DNA of 64,000 bases from Myxococcota bacterium. Lineage in GTDB: Bacteria > Myxococcota_A > Polyangia > Polyangiales > Sandaracinaceae. Under the pieces are notes generated by a model, which saw nothing but the letters and a program-made list of their open reading frames with translations, ran no database searches and was not told the DNA's origin. Shown piece by piece: positions 3,271-11,443 of this stretch (position 1 is its first letter; every line of letters starts with the position of its first letter). The DNA is taken from NCBI GenBank assembly GCA_036149055.1, contig JAYZQJ010000069.1, forward strand, positions 96,001 to 160,000. The letters run 5' to 3'. Position numbers and translations under genes: made by a program.

Positions 3271-3729
3271 GTGAAGCTCTCGAACAAGGGGCGCTACGGT
3301 GTGAAGGCGATCTTCGACATCGCCTTTCACAACGACGGCAAGGCGACGCAGATCAAGGAGATCGCGGAGCGGCAGGCGATCCCGCCCCGCTTCCTCGAGC
3401 AGATCTTCCAGGATCTCAAGCGCGCCGGGCTCGTCCGCTCCAAGCGCGGCCCGCGCGGCGGCTACCAGCTCGCGGTGCCCGCCGCCGACATCCGCCTCGG
3501 CGACATCATCCGGGCGCTCGAGGGGCCCCTGACCCTCAACGCGCCCAAGAAGGGCGACGACGACGAGGGGGACGCCACCAGCCGCGCGGTCACCGAGGAG
3601 GCGTTCGAGGACCTCGCCGAGCAGATCGAGGCCTGCTTCGACTCCCGCACCATCGAAGACCTCTGCGAGCGCGGTGAGGCGCTCGGCTACCGCCGCGACA
3701 CCCCCGGCAAGTACGTCTACGTGATCTGA
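3271..3729 (+). CDS. Rrf2-family transcriptional regulator, CymR-like
   Basis: MKLSNKGRYG, EIAERQAIPPRFLEQIF, VRSKRGPRGGYQL; lacks the three-Cys Fe-S motif of IscR; C-terminus KYVYVI; directly upstream of cysK. Confidence 0.9.
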   Translation: MKLSNKGRYGVKAIFDIAFHNDGKATQIKEIAERQAIPPRFLEQIFQDLKRAGLVRSKRGPRGGYQLAVPAADIRLGDIIRALEGPLTLNAPKKGDDDEGDATSRAVTEEAFEDLAEQIEACFDSRTIEDLCERGEALGYRRDTPGKYVYVI

Positions 3730-3754
3730 GCCGCGAGCTCGGAGGGAGATCCCC

Positions 3755-4662
<908 letters not shown>

Positions 4663-4666
<4 letters not shown>

Positions 4667-5370
4667 GCGACGCGCGCGTGCTCCTGGTCGGCGCCGGTGG
4701 CCTCGGCTCGCCGGCCGCCCTGGTGCTCGCCCGGAGCGGCGTGCGCCGCCTGACCGTGCTCGACGACGACGTGGTCGACGTCACGAACCTGCACCGCCAG
4801 GTGCTCTACGAGGACGCCGACGTCGGCCACCCCAAGGCGGAGCGCGCGGCCGCCCGCCTGGAGGCCGAGGGCGCGGTGCCCGAGGTCGTGCGAGGGCGCC
4901 TGCTCCCCGACACCGCCGAGGCGCTCTTCCGCGCGCACGACCTGGTGGTCGAGGGCGCCGACAACTTCGCCACCAAGTTCCTCGCCGCCGACGCGAGCGC
5001 GCTCACCGGCGTGCCGGTCGTGCAGGCGGGCGCGGTCCGCTGGAGCGGCTGGGCGCTCGCCACCCGACCCGGCGAGAGCGCGTGCCTGCGCTGCGTGTTC
5101 GAGGACATCCCCCGCGACCGGGTCGAGACCTGCGCCGAGGCGGGCGTGGTCGGGCCGGTCGTCGGCGTGCTCGGCGCGATCGAGGCCACCCTCGCCCTCC
5201 GGCTGCTCGGCGGCGACGCGAGCGCGGCGGGGGAGCTGTGGAGCTATCGCGGGCTCGAAGGGAGCCTGCGCGCGAGCCGCGTCCGACGGAGGCCGGGTTG
5301 TCCGGCCTGCGAGGGCGCCATCGAGGCGTTGACCTGGGAGCGCTATGCTCCGCCGGACTGCGCCGTCTGA
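4663..5370 (+). CDS. ThiF/MoeB/HesA-family E1-like adenylyltransferase without N-terminal helix or rhodanese domain
   Basis: ATGA overlap with cysK stop; VGAGGLGS, DDDVVDVTNLHRQ, GADNF, CLRC, ETCAEAGV, CPAC. This is the 3' part of track ORF 3850..5370. Confidence 0.92.
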
Positions 5371-5388
5371 GAGAAGACTGGAGACGTC

Positions 5389-5661
5389 ATGGCCATCACC
5401 GTTCGCATCCCCACCCCCCTCCGAAACCTCACCGGCGGGTCCGACGAGGTCAGCATCGACGGCGGCACCGTCGCCGAGGTGATCGACAACCTCGAGGCGG
5501 CCCACCCGGGCTTCAAGGAGCGCCTGCTCGACGACAAGGGCGTGCGCCGGCACGTGAACATCTTCGCCAACGACGAGGACATCCGCTTCCTCGACAACCT
5601 CGAGACGACGCTGAAGGACGGCGACTCGGTGCAGATCGTGCCCGCCATCGCCGGCGGCTGA
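5389..5661 (+). CDS. MoaD/ThiS/CysO-family ubiquitin-like sulfur carrier
   Basis: 90 aa, VRIPTPLR...VNIFANDEDIRFL...IVPAIAGG with C-terminal GG; GGAG RBS. Confidence 0.95.
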   Translation: MAITVRIPTPLRNLTGGSDEVSIDGGTVAEVIDNLEAAHPGFKERLLDDKGVRRHVNIFANDEDIRFLDNLETTLKDGDSVQIVPAIAGG

Positions 5662-5975
5662 TGCTCTCGCCCGAGGACAGGCGCCGCCACGCGCGCCAGC
5701 TGCTGCTCCCCGAGATCGGCGAGGCCGGCCAGCGCGCCCTGCTCGACGCGCGCGTGTCCGCCGGCTCCGACGTCGCCGCGCTCTACCTCGAGCGCGCGGG
5801 GCTGCAGGTGGCGCGCGGCGCAGAAACGCCCGCGGCGACCGCGACGCCCGAGCTGGCCGAGGCGGCGCGCTTCCTCGCCGGCGCGTTCGAGGCGGTGGAG
5901 ACGATCAAGCGCGTCGTCGGCGTCGGCCAGCCCGGTCGGCTCGACGTCTCGCTCCGGGGGCCGGGCGAGCGATGA
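5661..5975 (+). CDS. 104-aa MoeB/E1-derived mini-protein (Arg-finger and dimer helices only)
   Basis: TGATG coupling to the carrier gene and ATGA overlap with cysM; MLSPEDRRRHARQLLLPEIGEAGQRALLDARV, VAALYLERAGL, AGAFEAVETIKRVVG; no GxGxxG or CxxC. Confidence 0.8.
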   Translation: MLSPEDRRRHARQLLLPEIGEAGQRALLDARVSAGSDVAALYLERAGLQVARGAETPAATATPELAEAARFLAGAFEAVETIKRVVGVGQPGRLDVSLRGPGER

Positions 5976-6898
5976 GGCACGGCGCGATCACGTCGATCGT
6001 CGACGCGGTGGGCCAGACGCCGCTCGTCCGTCTCCGCAACCTGGAGCGCGACTGCGAAGGGGACGTCGAGCTCTGGCTGAAGCTCGAGTACGCCAACCCC
6101 GGCGGCTCGGTGAAGGACCGGCCCGCGCTGCAGATGATCCGCGACGCCCTGGCCGACGGTCGCTTCTCGAAGGACCGCACGCTCATCGACGCGACGAGCG
6201 GCAACACCGGCGTCGCCTACTCGCTCTACGGCGCCGCGCTCGGCCTCCGGGTCGCGCTCGTGATGCCGTCGAACGTCTCCCAGGCCCGGAAAGAGATCAC
6301 CCAGGCCTACGGGACCGAGCTGATCTACAGCGACCCGATGGAGGGCTCGGACGGCGCGATCCGCCTGGTGCGGGAGATCGTGGGCGAGGAGCCCGACCGC
6401 TGGTTCTACCCGGACCAGTACAGCAATCCGTCCAACCCGAAGGCGCACTACCTCGGCACCGGCAGCGAGATCGTGGCCCAGGTCGGCGACCGGCTCACCC
6501 ACTTCGTCACCGGGCTCGGCACGACCGGCACCATGATGGGGACGACCCGGCGCCTGAAGGAGCACCGCGCCTCGATCCGCTGCGTCGCGCTCGAGCCGGA
6601 CGACGCGTTCCACGGGCTCGAGGGGCTCAAGCACCTGCCGAGCTCGATCGTGCCGAACATCTACGACGCCAGCGTGCCGGACGAGATCATGCCGGTCGCG
6701 ACCGACGCCGGCTGGGACATGGCCGACCGGGTGGCCCGCGAGGAGGGCCTGCACATCGGCCACTCGGCCGGCGCCAACGTCTGGGGCGCGCTCGAGGTCG
6801 CCAAGACGCTGAAGGAGGGCTGCGTGGTCACCATCGCCTGCGACCGGGGCGACCGGTACTTCGCGCCGATGAAGTGGGAGAAGAAGTATGTCTGGTGA
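5972..6898 (+). CDS. cysM: Cysteine synthase B / CysM-type PLP enzyme, probably carrier-thiocarboxylate dependent
   Basis: NPGGSVKDR, DATSGNTG, DQYSNPSN, GLGTTGT, HGLEGLK, DRGDRY; flanked by carrier and JAB genes as in the mycobacterial mec-cysO-cysM system. Confidence 0.85.
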   Translation: MRHGAITSIVDAVGQTPLVRLRNLERDCEGDVELWLKLEYANPGGSVKDRPALQMIRDALADGRFSKDRTLIDATSGNTGVAYSLYGAALGLRVALVMPSNVSQARKEITQAYGTELIYSDPMEGSDGAIRLVREIVGEEPDRWFYPDQYSNPSNPKAHYLGTGSEIVAQVGDRLTHFVTGLGTTGTMMGTTRRLKEHRASIRCVALEPDDAFHGLEGLKHLPSSIVPNIYDASVPDEIMPVATDAGWDMADRVAREEGLHIGHSAGANVWGALEVAKTLKEGCVVTIACDRGDRYFAPMKWEKKYVW

Positions 6899-7388
6899 GC
6901 TGCCTCCGTGGACGCGCGGCGGGCTGTCCATCCCGCGGGCCCTGCTCGAGGCGATCGAGACCCACGCCGTGGAGGAGTACCCGAGCGAGGCCTGCGGCTT
7001 CGTGATCGGGCCGGCCGACGACGCGGCGAAGCTCGACGAGGCGGTGCGCGAGGTGAACGAGGCGGACAAGTACCACCGCCTCGACCCCGAGCGCTTCCCG
7101 CGGACGAGCCGCACCTACTTCAAGATCAACGAGCTGCGCGCGGCCCGCGCCTTCGAGGCGGGGGAGAAGAGCGGCCGCCCGATCAAGGTCATCTACCACT
7201 CGCACTGCGACGCCGGCGCCTACTTCAGCGAGGAGGACGCGGCGACCTTCTCGAACGAGGGCCAGCTGATGTGGCCGTGCGCGTTCCTGGTGGTCAGCGT
7301 GGTCGAGGGCGAGGTGCGAGACCGCAAGCTCTGGGTCCACGCGCCCGGCACCGACGACTTCACCGAGTCCCCCCTGACGATCTCATGA
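6888..7388 (+). CDS. JAB/MPN/Mov34 metallopeptidase (Mec-like carrier-Cys hydrolase)
   Basis: YPSEACG...IYHSHCDAGAYFSEED matches the JAMM motif E...HxH-x7-S-x2-D. Confidence 0.9.
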   Translation: MSGELPPWTRGGLSIPRALLEAIETHAVEEYPSEACGFVIGPADDAAKLDEAVREVNEADKYHRLDPERFPRTSRTYFKINELRAARAFEAGEKSGRPIKVIYHSHCDAGAYFSEEDAATFSNEGQLMWPCAFLVVSVVEGEVRDRKLWVHAPGTDDFTESPLTIS

Positions 7389-7819
7389 GCGATCCCCGAA
7401 ACCCCTACCCCACGGTCGACGTGCTGATCGAGACCGAGGGCGGCCTGGTCTTCATCGAGCGCGCCAACGCGCCCGCCGGCTGGGCGCTCCCCGGCGGCTT
7501 CATCGACTACGGCGAGCGGCCCGAGGACGCCGCGGTCCGGGAGGCCAAGGAGGAGACGGGGCTCGACGTCGAGCTGCTCTCGCTGCTCGGCGTCTACGGC
7601 GCGCCCGATCGCGATCCCAGGCAGCACAACGTCTCGATCGTCTACGTCGGCCGCGCGACCGGCCGCCCCTCCGGCGGCGACGACGCGGCGAAGGCCGAGA
7701 TCTTCGCGCCCGACGCCCCGCCCTCCCCGCTCTGCTTCGACCACGCCCGCATCCTCGAGGACTACCGCCGCTTCCGGGAGACCGGCGCCATCCCCCCGCC
7801 GCGGCGGGGAGACGGGTGA
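7385..7819 (+). CDS. NUDIX hydrolase
   Basis: ATGA overlap; Nudix box WALPGGFIDYGERPEDAAVREAKEETGL; RDPR, GDDA, FDH. Confidence 0.93.
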   Translation: MSDPRNPYPTVDVLIETEGGLVFIERANAPAGWALPGGFIDYGERPEDAAVREAKEETGLDVELLSLLGVYGAPDRDPRQHNVSIVYVGRATGRPSGGDDAAKAEIFAPDAPPSPLCFDHARILEDYRRFRETGAIPPPRRGDG

Positions 7820-8361
7820 GAGCGGACCTCGAGGCGCGCGCCGCCGTGCTCGTGGCGGCCGCGCGCGACGCGATCGCGGCGGCGGTGGAGCCCCGCGCCC
7901 CGCGGATCGCGGCCGCCGAGCGCGACCCCGTGCTCCGCGCCGACGCGGCCACCTTCGTGACCCTGCGCCAGCCCGACGCGACCCTGCGCGGCTGCATCGG
8001 GGAGCTCGAGGCGCGCCGCGCCCTCATCGACTCGGTGCGCGGCAACGCCGTCGCCGCCGCCACCCGCGATCCTCGCTTCCCGCCGGTCACCGCCGACGAG
8101 GTCGCGCAGCTCCAGATCGGCATCAGCGTGCTCACCCCGCCCGCGCCGATCCGCCCCGAGCAGATCGAGGTCGGCCGCCACGGCCTGCTGGTCGAGCGCG
8201 CACCGCACCGCGGCGTGCTCCTCCCCGAGGTCGCGGTGGATCAGGGATGGGACGCGGAGACGTTCCTCTCGATGACCTGCCGCAAGGCCGGCCTCGAGCT
8301 GGAGGCCTGGGGAGACCCCGAGACCCGCGTCCTCGCCTTCGAGACGATCAAGCTGCCTTGA
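7816..8361 (+). CDS. AMMECR1-domain protein (AmmeMemoRadiSam protein A-like)
   Basis: GTGA overlap; ATFVTL...LRGCIG, AATRDPRFPPV, GRHGL, GVLLPEVA, CRKAG. Confidence 0.92.
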   Translation: MRADLEARAAVLVAAARDAIAAAVEPRAPRIAAAERDPVLRADAATFVTLRQPDATLRGCIGELEARRALIDSVRGNAVAAATRDPRFPPVTADEVAQLQIGISVLTPPAPIRPEQIEVGRHGLLVERAPHRGVLLPEVAVDQGWDAETFLSMTCRKAGLELEAWGDPETRVLAFETIKLP

Positions 8362-8479: not shown

Positions 8480-8932
8480 CTACTCGTCGGCGCCGCCGGC
8501 GGTCGCCGCGACGGGCGGCTCCTCGGGAGCCACGGGCGCCTGGATGGGCAGCTCGTTGATGCCCTTGATGTCGCCGGAGAGCTTCTGGCTCTGGCGGAGG
8601 CGCGCCTTCTTCCCGCGGAGCTTGCGGAGGTAGTAGAGCTTCGCGCGGCGGACGTGACCGCGGCTCACCACGTCGAGCTTGTCGATCTTCGGCGAGTGCA
8701 CCGGGAAGATGCGCTCGACGCCGACCCCGTAGCTGACCTTGCGCACGGTGAACGTCTCGCGGTTCGCGCCGCCCTTGCGGCGGATCACGACGCCCTTGAA
8801 GACCTGGATGCGCTCCTTCTCGCCTTCCTTGATGCGATAGTGCACCTCGACCTGGTCGCCGGGGCGGAAGGCGGGGAGCTGGCGCTGCTGGGCGGCCTCG
8901 ATGGCCTGAATCTCGGGGACGACGCCTGACAT
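8480..8932 (-). CDS. rplS: 50S ribosomal protein L19 with Pro/Ala-rich C-terminal extension
   Basis: [55 protein letters not shown]. Confidence 0.98.
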
Positions 8933-9014
8933 GGCTGCAAAACCTCGTATCTCGGGCTCGGGGCCCTACCGTTGCTCGCGCGTGGGGCGAATGCCACCCG
9001 ACGCGGGGTCGCAG

Positions 9015-9043
9015 CGTTTAACACGACGTCCGGGCAGGGTCAA
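9015..9043 (-). promoter_or_regulatory. Putative internal promoter for rplS
   Basis: Minus strand TTGACC-17 nt-TAAACG preceded by TG. Confidence 0.4.
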
Positions 9044-9615
9044 TCGGACCCGCCCGGATTCGCGCCCCGCTCGCCGAACAGGCGGTCGAGCGTGATGGCC
9101 ACCGCGGCCCGCACCGAGAGGTGATTGTAGGCGCCAGCCCCGCGGATCGGGGCGATCACGCCGGTCGCCGCCTCCACCAGGGACGGCGCGAGCCCGTGCC
9201 CGGTGCCGAACAGCACCAGCGAGGGACACCCGCGCATGCGCGCGCCGGCGATCGCCGCGTCGGTCAGCCCCTCGGTCGCCCGAGCGCTCGTGATCCAGAT
9301 CTCCGGCGCCTCGCCCTCGCGGGAGGCGATCTCCCGGGCGGCGTCCTCCACCGAGTCGACCACCTCGCAGAGCGCCAGCGCGGCGCTGCGCTCGGGCACC
9401 CGGGCCGCTCCGGCCCCGTCGCGCCAGTGACCGAGGATGCGCTCGACGAGGGTGCGCTGGGCCTCGATCGGCGTGACCACGAAGTAGCCGGACAGATCGT
9501 AGGTCCGCGCGCTCCGGGCGATGTCGTGCACGTCGAGGTTGGTCACCGCGGTGGTGATCACGTCGCCCGCCCGATCGAGCACCGGGTGGTGCACCAGCGC
9601 GAGATAGACGCTCAC
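9040..9615 (-). CDS. SPOUT-class RNA methyltransferase (SPOUT_MTase_2-like)
   Basis: GTG 9615 overlaps trmD stop; YLALVHHPV...[44 protein letters not shown]. Confidence 0.9.
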
Positions 9616-10349
9616 GACTCGCGCTCGTCCCGCCAGGCGCGCTCTTCGTCGCTCAGCTCGCGGCCCTCGAGCAGATCGGGCCGGCGCTGCAGAGTGCGCT
9701 CGAAGGCCTGACGGCGACGCCAGGCGGCGATCTTCGCGTGGTTGCCGCTGAGGAGGATCTTCGGCACGCCCTCGCCTCGGAACTCGGCCGGGCGGGTGTA
9801 CTGCGGGTACTCGAGCAGCCCGCGGGCGTGGGACTCGTCTTCGATGGACTCCGGGTTGCCGAGCACCCCGGGAGCGAGCCGCGCCGTCGCCTCGATCACC
9901 GCCAGCGCCGCGATCTCCCCGCCCATCAGCACGAAGTCGCCGAGGCTCAGCTCCTGGTCGACCCGGCGCCGCGCCCGCTCGTCGACGCCCTCGTAGCGGC
10001 CGCACACGAGGGTGAGCGCGCCGCGCCCGGCGAGCTCGCGAGCGTGCGACTGCCGGAAGGGCTCGCCCTGGGGCGTCAGGAGCACGCGCCAGGGGCGCTC
10101 TCCGCCGCGCTCGAGCTCCCGGGCCTCCGCCCGCTCCATCGCCTCCACCACCGGGCCCGGCATCATCACCATGCCGCTACCGCCCCCGTAGGGAGTATCG
10201 TCGATGGAACGGTGGCGGTCGGTCGCGAACTCGCGGGGGCTCACCGTCTCGACGGTGACACGACCGCTCTCCTGCGCCTTGCCGAGGAGCGCCTGGCCGC
10301 AGAAGTCCCGCACCAGCTCCTCGAAGACGGTGACGACGTAGTACCTCAC
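9612..10349 (-). CDS. trmD: tRNA (guanine37-N1)-methyltransferase
   Basis: [62 protein letters not shown] 10349 coupled to rimM stop. Confidence 0.97.
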
Positions 10350-10873
10350 CGCTTCCTCCGGAGCTCGAAGTCCTCGTGGTGCCGGACCGTGAGCACGCCC
10401 TCGTCGAGATCGACGTCGATCACGTAGGGCTCGAGGATCGGGATCTCGCGCACGCCGTCCTCGCCTTCGACCAGCAGGCAGTCGACGCTGGGATAGCGGA
10501 TCACCTCGGCGACCACGCCGAGCGCGGCGCCGTCCTCGGCCCGCACGCGCAGGCCCTCGAGGTCGATGTGGTAGAGCTCGTCCTCGTCGGGCGGCGGCAG
10601 ATCGTCGCGCGGGACACACACCTCGAGGCCGCGGAGCGCCTCGGCGGCCTCGCGACCCACGACGCCCTCGAACACGTAGAGCACCAGCTCCCCGTGCGGA
10701 CGCGAGCGCTCGACGCGCATCTCGCGCAGCAGCCCGTCGGGCCCCCGCAGCCACACCTTCTCGCGATCGAGGAGGAGCGGGGAGTCCGGGTTGAAGCGGT
10801 GCACGCGCACCTCTCCCCGGACCCCGTGGGGGCGGGTCACCGCGCCGAGCGCGACCATGGCCGGCTCGGCCAT
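10346..10873 (-). CDS. rimM: Ribosome maturation factor RimM
   Basis: [28 protein letters not shown]; canonical position between khpA and trmD. Confidence 0.95.
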
Positions 10874-10877
10874 GGGG

Positions 10878-11117
10878 CTACTCGAGGATGTCGAGCACGG
10901 CCCGGCGGCGCTGGCGCGCGGACGTCGCCGCGAGCAGGGTGCGCATGGCCCGGGCGGTGCGGCCATCCTTGCCGATGACCTTGCCGAGATCGTTCTGCGC
11001 GACGCTGAGCTCCACGATCAGCGCGCGATCGCCCTCGACCGCATCGACCTGCACCTCGTCGGGCTCGTCGACGAGGGCGCGGGCGATGTAGTCGATCAGC
11101 TCGGTGAGCTGGTCCAC
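10878..11117 (-). CDS. khpA: KH-domain RNA-binding protein KhpA
   Basis: LVDEPDEV...DLGKVIGKDGRTARAMRTLL; between rpsP and rimM. Confidence 0.93.
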   Translation of the reverse strand: MDQLTELIDYIARALVDEPDEVQVDAVEGDRALIVELSVAQNDLGKVIGKDGRTARAMRTLLAATSARQRRRAVLDILE

Positions 11118-11128
11118 GTCGTCGCCGC

Positions 11129-11443
11129 TCAGGCGCCCGCCTCGGCCGACTCTTCGGCCTTGGGCTCCGCGGCGGGAGCGACGGCGGCCTCGGGGGCGGC
11201 CGCGCCGAGACGGCGGCAGGTGTTGATCAGGTTGCGGACCCGATCGCTGGGCTGCGCGCCCACGCCGATCCAGTGGTCCACGCGCTCGAGGTCGAGGCGG
11301 ATGTCCTCGTCCGGGCGCGACGGATCGTAGGTCCCGACCTGCTCGAGGAACCGCCCATCGCGGGGGCTCTCGGAGTCGGTGACGACGATGTGGTAGTAGG
11401 GACGCTTCTTGGCGCCATGACGCGCCAGTCGAATCTTGACCAT
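11129..11443 (-). CDS. rpsP: 30S ribosomal protein S16
   Basis: [41 protein letters not shown]...GAQPSDRV. Confidence 0.98.

Follow-up and report, generated by a model that had tools for sequence, protein, structure and literature searches.

A reduced E1-like protein encoded beside an N-terminally truncated ThiF/MoeB-type E1 in a Myxococcota sulfur-carrier operon

In a stretch of 64,000 nucleotides from a Myxococcota bacterium of the family Sandaracinaceae (assembly GCA_036149055.1, contig JAYZQJ010000069.1, positions 96,001 to 160,000 of the forward strand; hereafter the window), we studied two genes that lie on either side of a gene for a ubiquitin-like sulfur carrier (Ubl). One codes for a ThiF/MoeB-type activating enzyme (E1) of 235 amino acids that is truncated at its N-terminus (4663 to 5370, + strand), and the other for a protein of 104 amino acids with homology to the N-terminus of MoeB/ThiF (5661 to 5975, + strand), which we call the mini protein. 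We favor, with a probability of roughly 0.6, the reading that the mini protein is a minimal inactive adenylation-domain partner, which would form a pseudo-dimer with the truncated E1 in an operon of the CysO/CysM/JAB type.

The truncated E1 and its E1-like neighbor

The operon E1 aligned with the Pfam ThiF profile over positions 19-237 of 238 (186 bits; cut-off 28.1), and in a six-frame Pfam search with read-through the match began at window position 4654, corresponding to profile position 15. When compared to E. coli ThiF (139 bits; E = 1e-39), residue 2 of the E1 aligned with ThiF residue 27, and ThiF residues 1-26 are absent from the E1. The ATP, zinc and cysteine motifs are the same as in ThiF: GAGGLG (G10-G15), R45 (equivalent to ThiF R70), K58, D100 and T156-C157 are present, as are both zinc pairs (C141xxC144 and C213xxC216). 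Among 15 orthologues, G10-G15, R45, K58, D100, C141/C144, C157 and C213 are invariant and C216 is near-invariant. The N-terminal RxxRQ and GxxGQ helices, which hold the arginine known as R11 in ThiF and R14 in MoeB, were found neither in the E1 nor in frame upstream of it, and a Pfam scan revealed no rhodanese domain in the operon E1. The initial annotation, made by a model from the sequence and its open reading frames (ORFs), had described an E1 that begins at the Rossmann strand without the RQ helix and keeps the ATP loop, both CxxC pairs and the TC cysteine, and these results agree with it in full. A full-length housekeeping E1, with an N-terminal rhodanese followed by a ThiF domain, is encoded elsewhere in the genome (contig C206; L021:1108-2268); this rhodanese-MoeB is possibly an alternative activator or sulfur donor for the operon Ubl.

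The mini protein gave no Pfam match at E ≤ 0.1, and its best NCBIfam score, 27.4 bits, is below the family cut-off of 449; its residues 2-48 matched NCBIfam PRK08762 with an E-value of 1.3e-6. Using hhalign, columns 5-58 of the mini family aligned with residues 124-177 of the rhodanese-MoeB of the same genome (probability 97.3%; E = 2.5e-11). A search of PDB sequences with the family profile matched E. coli ThiF at residues 3-57 (E = 1.2e-8) and, weakly but in collinear order, again at residues 198-219; the corresponding stretches in MoeB are 4-93 and 199-220. The protein consists of N-terminal helices (with R12, G20, G23 and Q24), a degenerate beta1-alphaA-beta2 unit (Y42, L43, R45 and G47), a variable linker and a long helix spanning residues 63-86 (with G74 and A78) that is homologous to ThiF ~198-219; R12 is homologous to ThiF R11 and MoeB R14. 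In a 26-member alignment, G20, Q24, L43, R45, G47, G74 and A78 are invariant, A11, R12, L16, G23, L27 and Y42 are near-invariant, and the linker is rich in insertions and deletions. A GxGxxG or P-loop, a catalytic Asp, a zinc site or CxxC pair and a catalytic Cys were found neither in the mini protein nor in this alignment. The earlier description of a protein with the RQ helix plus MoeB-like helices, devoid of GxGxxG and zinc site, is thus upheld by the NCBIfam, hhalign and PDB profile searches, and we conclude that the mini protein is a reduced E1 paralogue that has kept regions like ThiF ~1-57 and 198-219 and lost ~140 core residues. Since segments equivalent to ThiF 27-57 and ~198-219 are present in both the mini protein and the E1, the two are not the complementary halves that had been proposed, and their origin is to be sought in duplication followed by reduction of one copy rather than in fission.

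The AlphaFold2 model of the mini protein is confident, with a predicted local distance difference test (pLDDT) of 92.4 and a predicted template modelling score of 0.83, and displays helices at residues 4-9, 11-14 and 20-29, a strand at 31-34, a helix at 37-45, a strand at 49-52 and the long helix at 63-86. In VIA-align, residues 1-102 of the model superimposed on MoeB (1jw9_B, residues 3-232) with a Z of 8.3 and a root-mean-square deviation of 2.3 Å over 101 of the 104 residues, followed by ThiF (Z 8.1-8.2), Uba4 (Z 8.2), SAE1 (Z 7.7; 99 residues) and APPBP1 (Z 7.3); overlays on MoeB and ThiF deviate by 2.3-2.6 Å. A Z near 8 is in itself no more than middling, and the weight of this result comes from ranks 1-25 being E1-family chains throughout. 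Foldseek returned no PDB match for the model at E ≤ 0.001, the best being ThiF at 2.6e-3. The modeled structure indicates an E1-like fold without a functional nucleotide site, that is, the skeleton of the fold only.

As to the arrangement of the genes, the mini gene had been placed two genes after the E1; it is indeed the second gene after the E1, and is more clearly described as the gene directly after Ubl. The Ubl gene (5389 to 5661, + strand) codes for a ThiS/MoaD/SAMP1-like sulfur carrier of 90 amino acids with a GG C-terminus (Pfam ThiS 59.4 bits; NCBIfam SAMP1 63.2 bits, cut-off 60; moaD_arch 54.5 bits, cut-off 49.5). Its TGA stop codon and the ATG start codon of the mini gene have a single base in common (TGATG, a 1-nt overlap), and the mini stop codon overlaps the start codon of the following cysM-like gene (ATGA), as expected from the translational coupling that had been claimed for the 104-aa ORF. 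These are two of four overlapping junctions in the operon, the others being cysK/E1 (ATGA) and cysM/JAB (11 nt). The mini frame has GC fractions of 0.84, 0.55 and 0.95 at the first, second and third codon positions, a coding pattern as in its neighbors.

An upstream E1 start with an RQ helix was considered and rejected. The reading in frame upstream of the E1, '..LRHRRAVLQPGRVLR', is faintly RxxRQ-like, has no GxxGQ helix, lies outside the ThiF profile match and is an off-frame image of the conserved C-terminus of cysK, leaving no genuine upstream start with an RQ helix. This pseudo-helix reading recurs wherever cysK precedes the E1, and in two related loci (L152 and L154) tblastn aligned it to MoeB. 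Within the window, positions 4621-4662 read in the E1 frame turn the C-terminal cysK codons into 'RHRRAVLQPGRVLR', which mimics an E1 N-terminal helix and is a trap for automatic start calling.

Predicted pairing of the E1 and the mini protein

Complex prediction for the E1 and the mini protein yielded an ipSAE of 0.92 in three of three runs, when compared to 0.00 for the best of three controls. In the reference sets, 116 of 157 solved complexes attain this ipSAE, as against 2 of 215 mismatched pairs, a calibration that is approximate here because the E1 and the mini protein were entered with alignments of our own making. Contacts were at least 98% alike between runs and the pLDDT of the partner was at least 86. 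The predicted interface comprises residues 17-25, 40-47, 126-127, 157-188 and 197-206 of the E1 and residues 8-19, 39-46, 64-83 and 88-101 of the mini protein. By homology, residue n of the mini protein corresponds to E1 residue n+97 in the long helix and to E1 residue n-20 in alphaA, and the predicted contacts are reciprocal under this mapping: E1 169-mini 75 is mirrored by E1 172-mini 72, E1 165-mini 79 by E1 176-mini 68, and E1 21-mini 68 by E1 165-mini 42. Such contacts between homologous helices suggest a pseudo-two-fold arrangement in which the mini protein takes the place of the second protomer. The heterodimeric pairing put forward in the initial annotation is thus predicted, at the helix-helix face of the E1, by a model that may owe its result to solved ThiF dimers. 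Residues 8-13 of the mini protein, including R12, contact E1 residues 40-47, including the ATP-binding R45, in a model that is free of ATP and gives no distance from R12 to a phosphate.

This geometry has precedents. The arginines R11 of ThiF and R14 of MoeB come from the neighboring subunit and complete its ATP site (PMC13139853; PMC12596934), and Uba4 Arg18 is likewise supplied by the neighboring subunit (PMC7527816); the premise that a MoeB-type helix provides an arginine in trans is therefore sound, and R12 of the mini protein is homologous to this residue. Like E. coli ThiF-ThiS and MoeB-MoaD (1ZUD, 1ZFN, 1JW9), the present system has the ATP, zinc and cysteine motifs, a Ubl ending in GG and a finger arginine that would come from the partner chain, but the finger helices reside on a separate 104-aa chain without an active site, and one site per pair would be expected instead of the two of the homodimers. 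The eukaryotic SAE1/SAE2 (UBA2) and APPBP1 (NAE1)/UBA3 enzymes also distribute an inactive and an active adenylation domain over two polypeptides. Their inactive subunits have 300-530 residues with the full fold and insertions, whereas the mini protein has about 100, and in contrast to the eukaryotic E1s there is no E2, UFD or Cys domain here, and the setting is a sulfur relay rather than protein conjugation; we infer that the mini protein originated independently of the eukaryotic inactive subunits.

The bacterial parallel to the eukaryotic active/inactive split that the initial annotation had drawn is in line with the predicted pseudo-subunit, but would not be the first one. BilD is a bacterial one-chain E1 in which an inactive and an active adenylation domain form a pseudo-dimer with a single active site (PMC10557695), an arrangement similar to the one predicted here; BilD differs in being one polypeptide with a full-size inactive domain, a CYS domain and an E2 partner, and in serving defense in Bil antiviral operons. 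All other known bacterial E1-like proteins are homodimeric according to Chambers et al. (PMC10557695). Yeast Tcd1-Tcd2, which makes ct6A, is likewise a heterodimer of ThiF-family proteins, one of them giving an arginine finger to the active site of the other, yet both chains are full-size, eukaryotic and act on tRNA (PMC13139853). The closest operon precedent is the CysO-CysM-Mec+ system together with the operon type that Iyer et al. (2006) number 4c, comprising ThiS/MoaD, E1, JAB and cysteine synthase genes (PMC1779556); the GG-ending Ubl, the CysM-like enzyme and the JAB protease are alike, whereas the E1 of type 4c is described as a fusion to rhodanese and the E1 here has neither rhodanese nor N-terminal helices and is accompanied by an additional mini gene. 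We came across no mini partner in the operon-type description of Iyer et al. (PMC1779556), and our searches of the open literature (including PMC1779556, PMC12596934, PMC12355090 and PMC10557695) brought up no account of a bacterial ThiF/MoeB that is split or heterodimeric and accompanied by such a partner.

On this basis we propose a mechanism in which the mini protein would be a drastically reduced, catalytically dead E1 paralogue that has kept three elements: a pair of N-terminal helices bearing the arginine finger, the degenerate beta1-alphaA-beta2 unit, and the long helix, which would pack along the axis of an E1 dimer. A coupled operon (cysK - E1ΔN - Ubl - mini - cysM - JAB, where E1ΔN is the truncated E1) would supply it in parallel with the Ubl and the E1, and it would bind at the second-protomer position, giving a pseudo-symmetric heterodimer of 1:1 stoichiometry in which there is only one ATP/Ubl site. 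The N-terminal helix of the mini protein would reach the ATP-phosphate region of the E1 (R45) in trans, like the partner helix in ThiF, MoeB and Uba4 homodimers. While the binding and geometry are predicted by the model, the arginine contribution and the pathway chemistry are what we infer from related systems: the complex would adenylate the C-terminal Gly-Gly of the Ubl, which would then be thiocarboxylated, the CysM-like enzyme would make cysteine with the thiocarboxylated Ubl, and the JAB protease would free the product in chemistry of the CysO/CysM/Mec+ type. The details of the CysO-CysM-Mec+ pathway are mycobacterial.

Distribution of the gene pair and alternative explanations

Relatives of the mini protein in Myxococcota carry the label 'hypothetical protein' in public sources. 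We fetched 62 distinct loci with the mini protein as query, a set in which the presence of a mini gene is circular whereas the state of the E1 is not. A motif-bearing ORF lies right after the Ubl gene in 61 of the 62 loci, and the 62nd was positive by tblastn. These mini-like ORFs are complete in 59 of 61 cases, measure 89-158 aa and are spread over family-to-phylum distances; the finger residue is arginine in 59 and lysine in 2. The N-terminal motif is absent from all partner E1s visible at these loci (0 of 54), and conservation of the gene pair across the phylum, which the initial annotation had proposed to survey, is thus borne out. In tblastn, the mini protein matched 59 of 61 related genomes (a tally that includes the unpublished genome G023, which served for nothing else), many of these matches being limited to residues 2-49 and coinciding with the N-terminal part of a full-length E1. 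True minis, arranged as cysK - E1ΔN - Ubl - mini - (cysM) - JAB, occur at 19 loci of the first related set. A second family has them as well (18 of 18 genomes), and so do other families here and there in the phylum, and 24 loci from genome collections are titled Sandaracinaceae, Polyangiales, Myxococcales or 'Deltaproteobacteria' metagenome-assembled genomes. A profile search of 1.84 billion representatives revealed 5141 matches at E ≤ 1e-3, of which 484 reached E ≤ 1e-10; the 150 top-scoring ones among the 5141 are all 102-210 aa long, span the profile and make up at least 150 clusters at 50% identity. The nearest ESM Atlas clusters (61, 277 and 78 members) are unnamed and mostly from Myxococcota. 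The homology and conservation of the mini protein are firm.

Some candidates were set aside. Three 'Gammaproteobacteria' loci (L090, L120 and L123) that appeared to place mini proteins outside Myxococcota are full-length rhodanese-MoeB genes, and other matches confined to the N-terminal part are likewise the N-termini of full-length E1s. A second mini on contig C142 of the same genome (E = 0.0025) lies inside and opposite unrelated ORFs and was treated as spurious.

We also sampled loci from the side of the carrier. A search of 301 genomes of the phylum with the Ubl matched 171, from which we chose 40 loci by hand, 20 within the same order or class and 20 elsewhere in the phylum, a choice that favored high Ubl scores and genomes without a full-length mini in an earlier listing. 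Where an N-truncated E1 lies upstream of Ubl (n = 18), a mini-like ORF follows Ubl in 14 (13 by hidden Markov model at E ≤ 1e-3 and 1 by eye). Where a full-length rhodanese-E1 lies beside Ubl (n = 3) there is none, and where no E1 was found within 3.5 kb (n = 19) there is again no mini, 2 of these loci having an RQ-helix region fused to JAB and 17 lacking any gene insert after Ubl. The mini protein is tied to truncated E1s, yet a truncated E1 sometimes occurs without it. Partner proteins also vary in length: ThiF profile positions 1-98 can still be matched in L124, at a sub-threshold score, L108 retains a CPAC pair along with CACG at its C-terminus, and L045-type forms keep an extra strand-helix, which fits a stepwise reduction.

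Two further gene forms were seen after Ubl. In one family of the phylum the post-Ubl gene is a fusion (L161:3786-4835; L171:3794-4846; L172:2425-3465, - strand; L169:3853-5838) of a ~200-aa region that opens with an RQ-type helix (..F.RYGRQLLV..) and Prok-JAB, with PAS and GGDEF in addition in L169. These ~200-aa regions gave no Pfam ThiF match, and since their likeness to full-size inactive E1 domains is one of visual inspection, we do not assign them to that class. At L171 and L172 no E1 was found within 3.5 kb. In the class-level relatives L150 (~3810-4070) and L151, a short extra ORF (..KRVYLTYPAHLVREPLVCRMYDELRVEFNVRTASVTDEIGIIGLELSG..) lies between Ubl and the mini-like gene and resembles, by eye, a small ligand-binding (ACT/NIL-like) domain.

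Several results weigh against a pseudo-dimer of the mini protein and the truncated E1. Four of the 18 truncated E1s (L148, L152, L153 and L154, from genomes G281, G321, G261 and G306) have no mini within 3.5 kb; their order is cysK-E1-Ubl-cysM-JAB with a Ubl-to-cysM spacing of 39-90 nt, and a search at E ≤ 0.01 of the four whole genomes (94-98% complete) detected only the N-terminus of a full-length E1, indicating that a truncated E1 can persist alone. Moreover, the arginine finger is reported to be dispensable for MoeB and ThiF and to be lacking from TcdA (PMC13139853), and in Tcd1-Tcd2 mutation of the finger lowered the ct6A/t6A ratio by only 26% (PMC13139853). The term 'obligate', used in the initial annotation for the heterodimer, is unsupported and is weakened by these two points, and a requirement for the mini protein in E1 activity falls, in our estimate, a little short of an even chance. 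The success of the complex prediction may be explained by likeness to solved ThiF/MoeB homodimers, and an E1 homodimer would compete for the same face, the prediction having covered the E1 and the mini protein only. In favor of the predicted interface (45 of 104 residues), it takes in 13 of the 18 mini positions with a conservation of 85% or more, and the mean top-residue frequency is 0.67 in the interface vs. 0.46 in the rest of the protein, a comparison that is not independent since the predictor used the same alignment and its rows are related. Identity across relatives is 40-65% for the mini protein vs. 55-93% for its neighbors. The ratio of nonsynonymous to synonymous substitution (dN/dS; NG86 method) in the closest pair is 0.51 for mini, 0.12-0.24 for cysM, JAB and E1, and 0.45 for Ubl, and the mini value is ~1 or higher in several other pairs (e.g., 1.02 and 1.35); the estimate proposed at the outset was thus obtained, and its values are judged a weak test of selection since dS is unreliable at ~95% GC at third codon positions and the linker is rich in insertions and deletions. 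On the side of joint expression, contigs from RNA libraries (4 runs of 2 studies; 0-2 differences) span the Ubl-mini junction at 5262-5851, 5333-5738, 5364-5765 and 5493-5693, consistent with co-transcription, although strand and level are not visible in them and carry-over of DNA is possible.

Part of this evidence would be accommodated if the truncated E1 were an ordinary homodimer that works without an arginine finger, with the mini protein as an accessory or regulatory cap, or a competitor, at the dimer face: it might be a brake on Ubl activation, a stabilizer of the monomer, or a block on mixed dimers with the housekeeping rhodanese-MoeB. The four truncated E1s that lack a mini, the reportedly dispensable finger of MoeB and ThiF, the separate full-length enzyme on contig C206, and an interface that is the very face a second E1 would use, through a helix homologous to the mini protein's own, all speak for this possibility. 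We consider it unlikely, as a mere cap would not need the finger residue (arginine at 59 loci, lysine at 2) and GxxGQ that are kept at the 61 loci, the helices have been lost from the E1s while being kept in the partner, and genes so tightly coupled in translation suggest a stoichiometric complex more than a regulator.

Less probable still, and in our view improbable, is that the mini protein has another partner, as an adaptor for the Ubl, the CysM-like enzyme, the JAB protease or a sulfur donor, or is a functionless relic of a duplicated E1 gene. Its fast evolution with high dN/dS, its indel-rich linker and variable length would suit such an origin, and the fusion of the RQ-helix region to JAB in some relatives hints at a JAB-linked role. 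A relic or a free adaptor is at odds with 59 complete ORFs of 61 across family-to-phylum distances, with at least 150 clusters at full profile coverage, with a confident and compact predicted fold that has invariant positions, and with the predicted complex, which separates so sharply from its controls. Simple gene fission, in which an ancestral E1 was divided and the N-terminal part ended up behind the Ubl gene to give non-overlapping halves, would explain why the E1 lacks exactly those helices found in the mini protein but can hardly be right, being contradicted by the ThiF segments that are duplicated in the two proteins and by longer relatives in which a larger share of the Rossmann fold (L124) or a CxxC pair (L108) is still present.

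An active paired with a silent adenylation domain is a hallmark of eukaryotic ubiquitin-type activation, and arguments on how symmetric ThiF/MoeB dimers gave rise to this asymmetry usually start from the end states. In the present operon, a sulfur-relay E1 of a bacterium seems to have gone the same way, with two separate genes and a silent partner shrunk to ~100 residues. If binding and function are confirmed, the pair would show which elements of a silent subunit are indispensable, would give a name and a role to a family of at least 150 clusters that are now 'hypothetical protein', and would offer a small, tractable system for the contribution of the trans-arginine and of the dimer partner to Ubl adenylation, with the four lineages that have a truncated E1 but no mini (L148 and L152-L154) as natural controls for the need of a partner. 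Going further, the 90-160-aa proteins might be the smallest known inactive adenylation domains and obligate pseudo-subunits that converted a homodimeric E1 with two sites into a heterodimer with one. Their rise in Myxococcota would then be independent of that of eukaryotic E1s and of BilD, and the reduction series in living relatives would define the minimal parts (finger helices and axis helix); this broader proposal is tentative, and we would sooner doubt it than rely on it.

Operon genes and surroundings

The E1, Ubl and mini genes belong to one tightly packed same-strand cluster at window positions 3271-7819. A gene for an Rrf2-family transcription regulator opens the co-oriented cluster (3271 to 3729, + strand; Pfam Rrf2 130 bits), scoring above the cut-off of NCBIfam rrf2_super and below those of the IscR and CymR models. 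It is followed by a CysK-type cysteine synthase gene (3755 to 4666, + strand; TIGR01139 cysK 373.5 bits vs. a cut-off of 350.95; Pfam PALP). Downstream of the mini gene lies the gene for a CysM-like pyridoxal phosphate enzyme (5972 to 6898, + strand; Pfam PALP 215.6 bits), which scored 338.8 bits with TIGR01138 cysM, under the cut-off of 394.2, and then that for a Prok-JAB/JAMM metalloprotease resembling Mec+ (6888 to 7388, + strand; Pfam Prok-JAB 61.1 bits). A Nudix hydrolase gene (7385 to 7819, + strand; Pfam NUDIX 87.4 bits) overlaps the JAB stop codon and may be part of the same transcription unit as JAB.

The Nudix gene is followed by an AMMECR1 gene (7385-8361 for the two), both on the strand of JAB and each overlapping the preceding stop codon by 4 nt. 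On the opposite strand, positions 8480-11443 hold what appears by eye to be a ribosomal/tRNA cluster, with an L19-like gene (8480-8932), TrmD-like, RimM-like and KH-domain genes and an S16-like gene (11129-11443). Upstream of the operon, a long ORF on the - strand (712-2457) looks, also by eye, like a Ser/Thr protein kinase with a coiled-coil tail.

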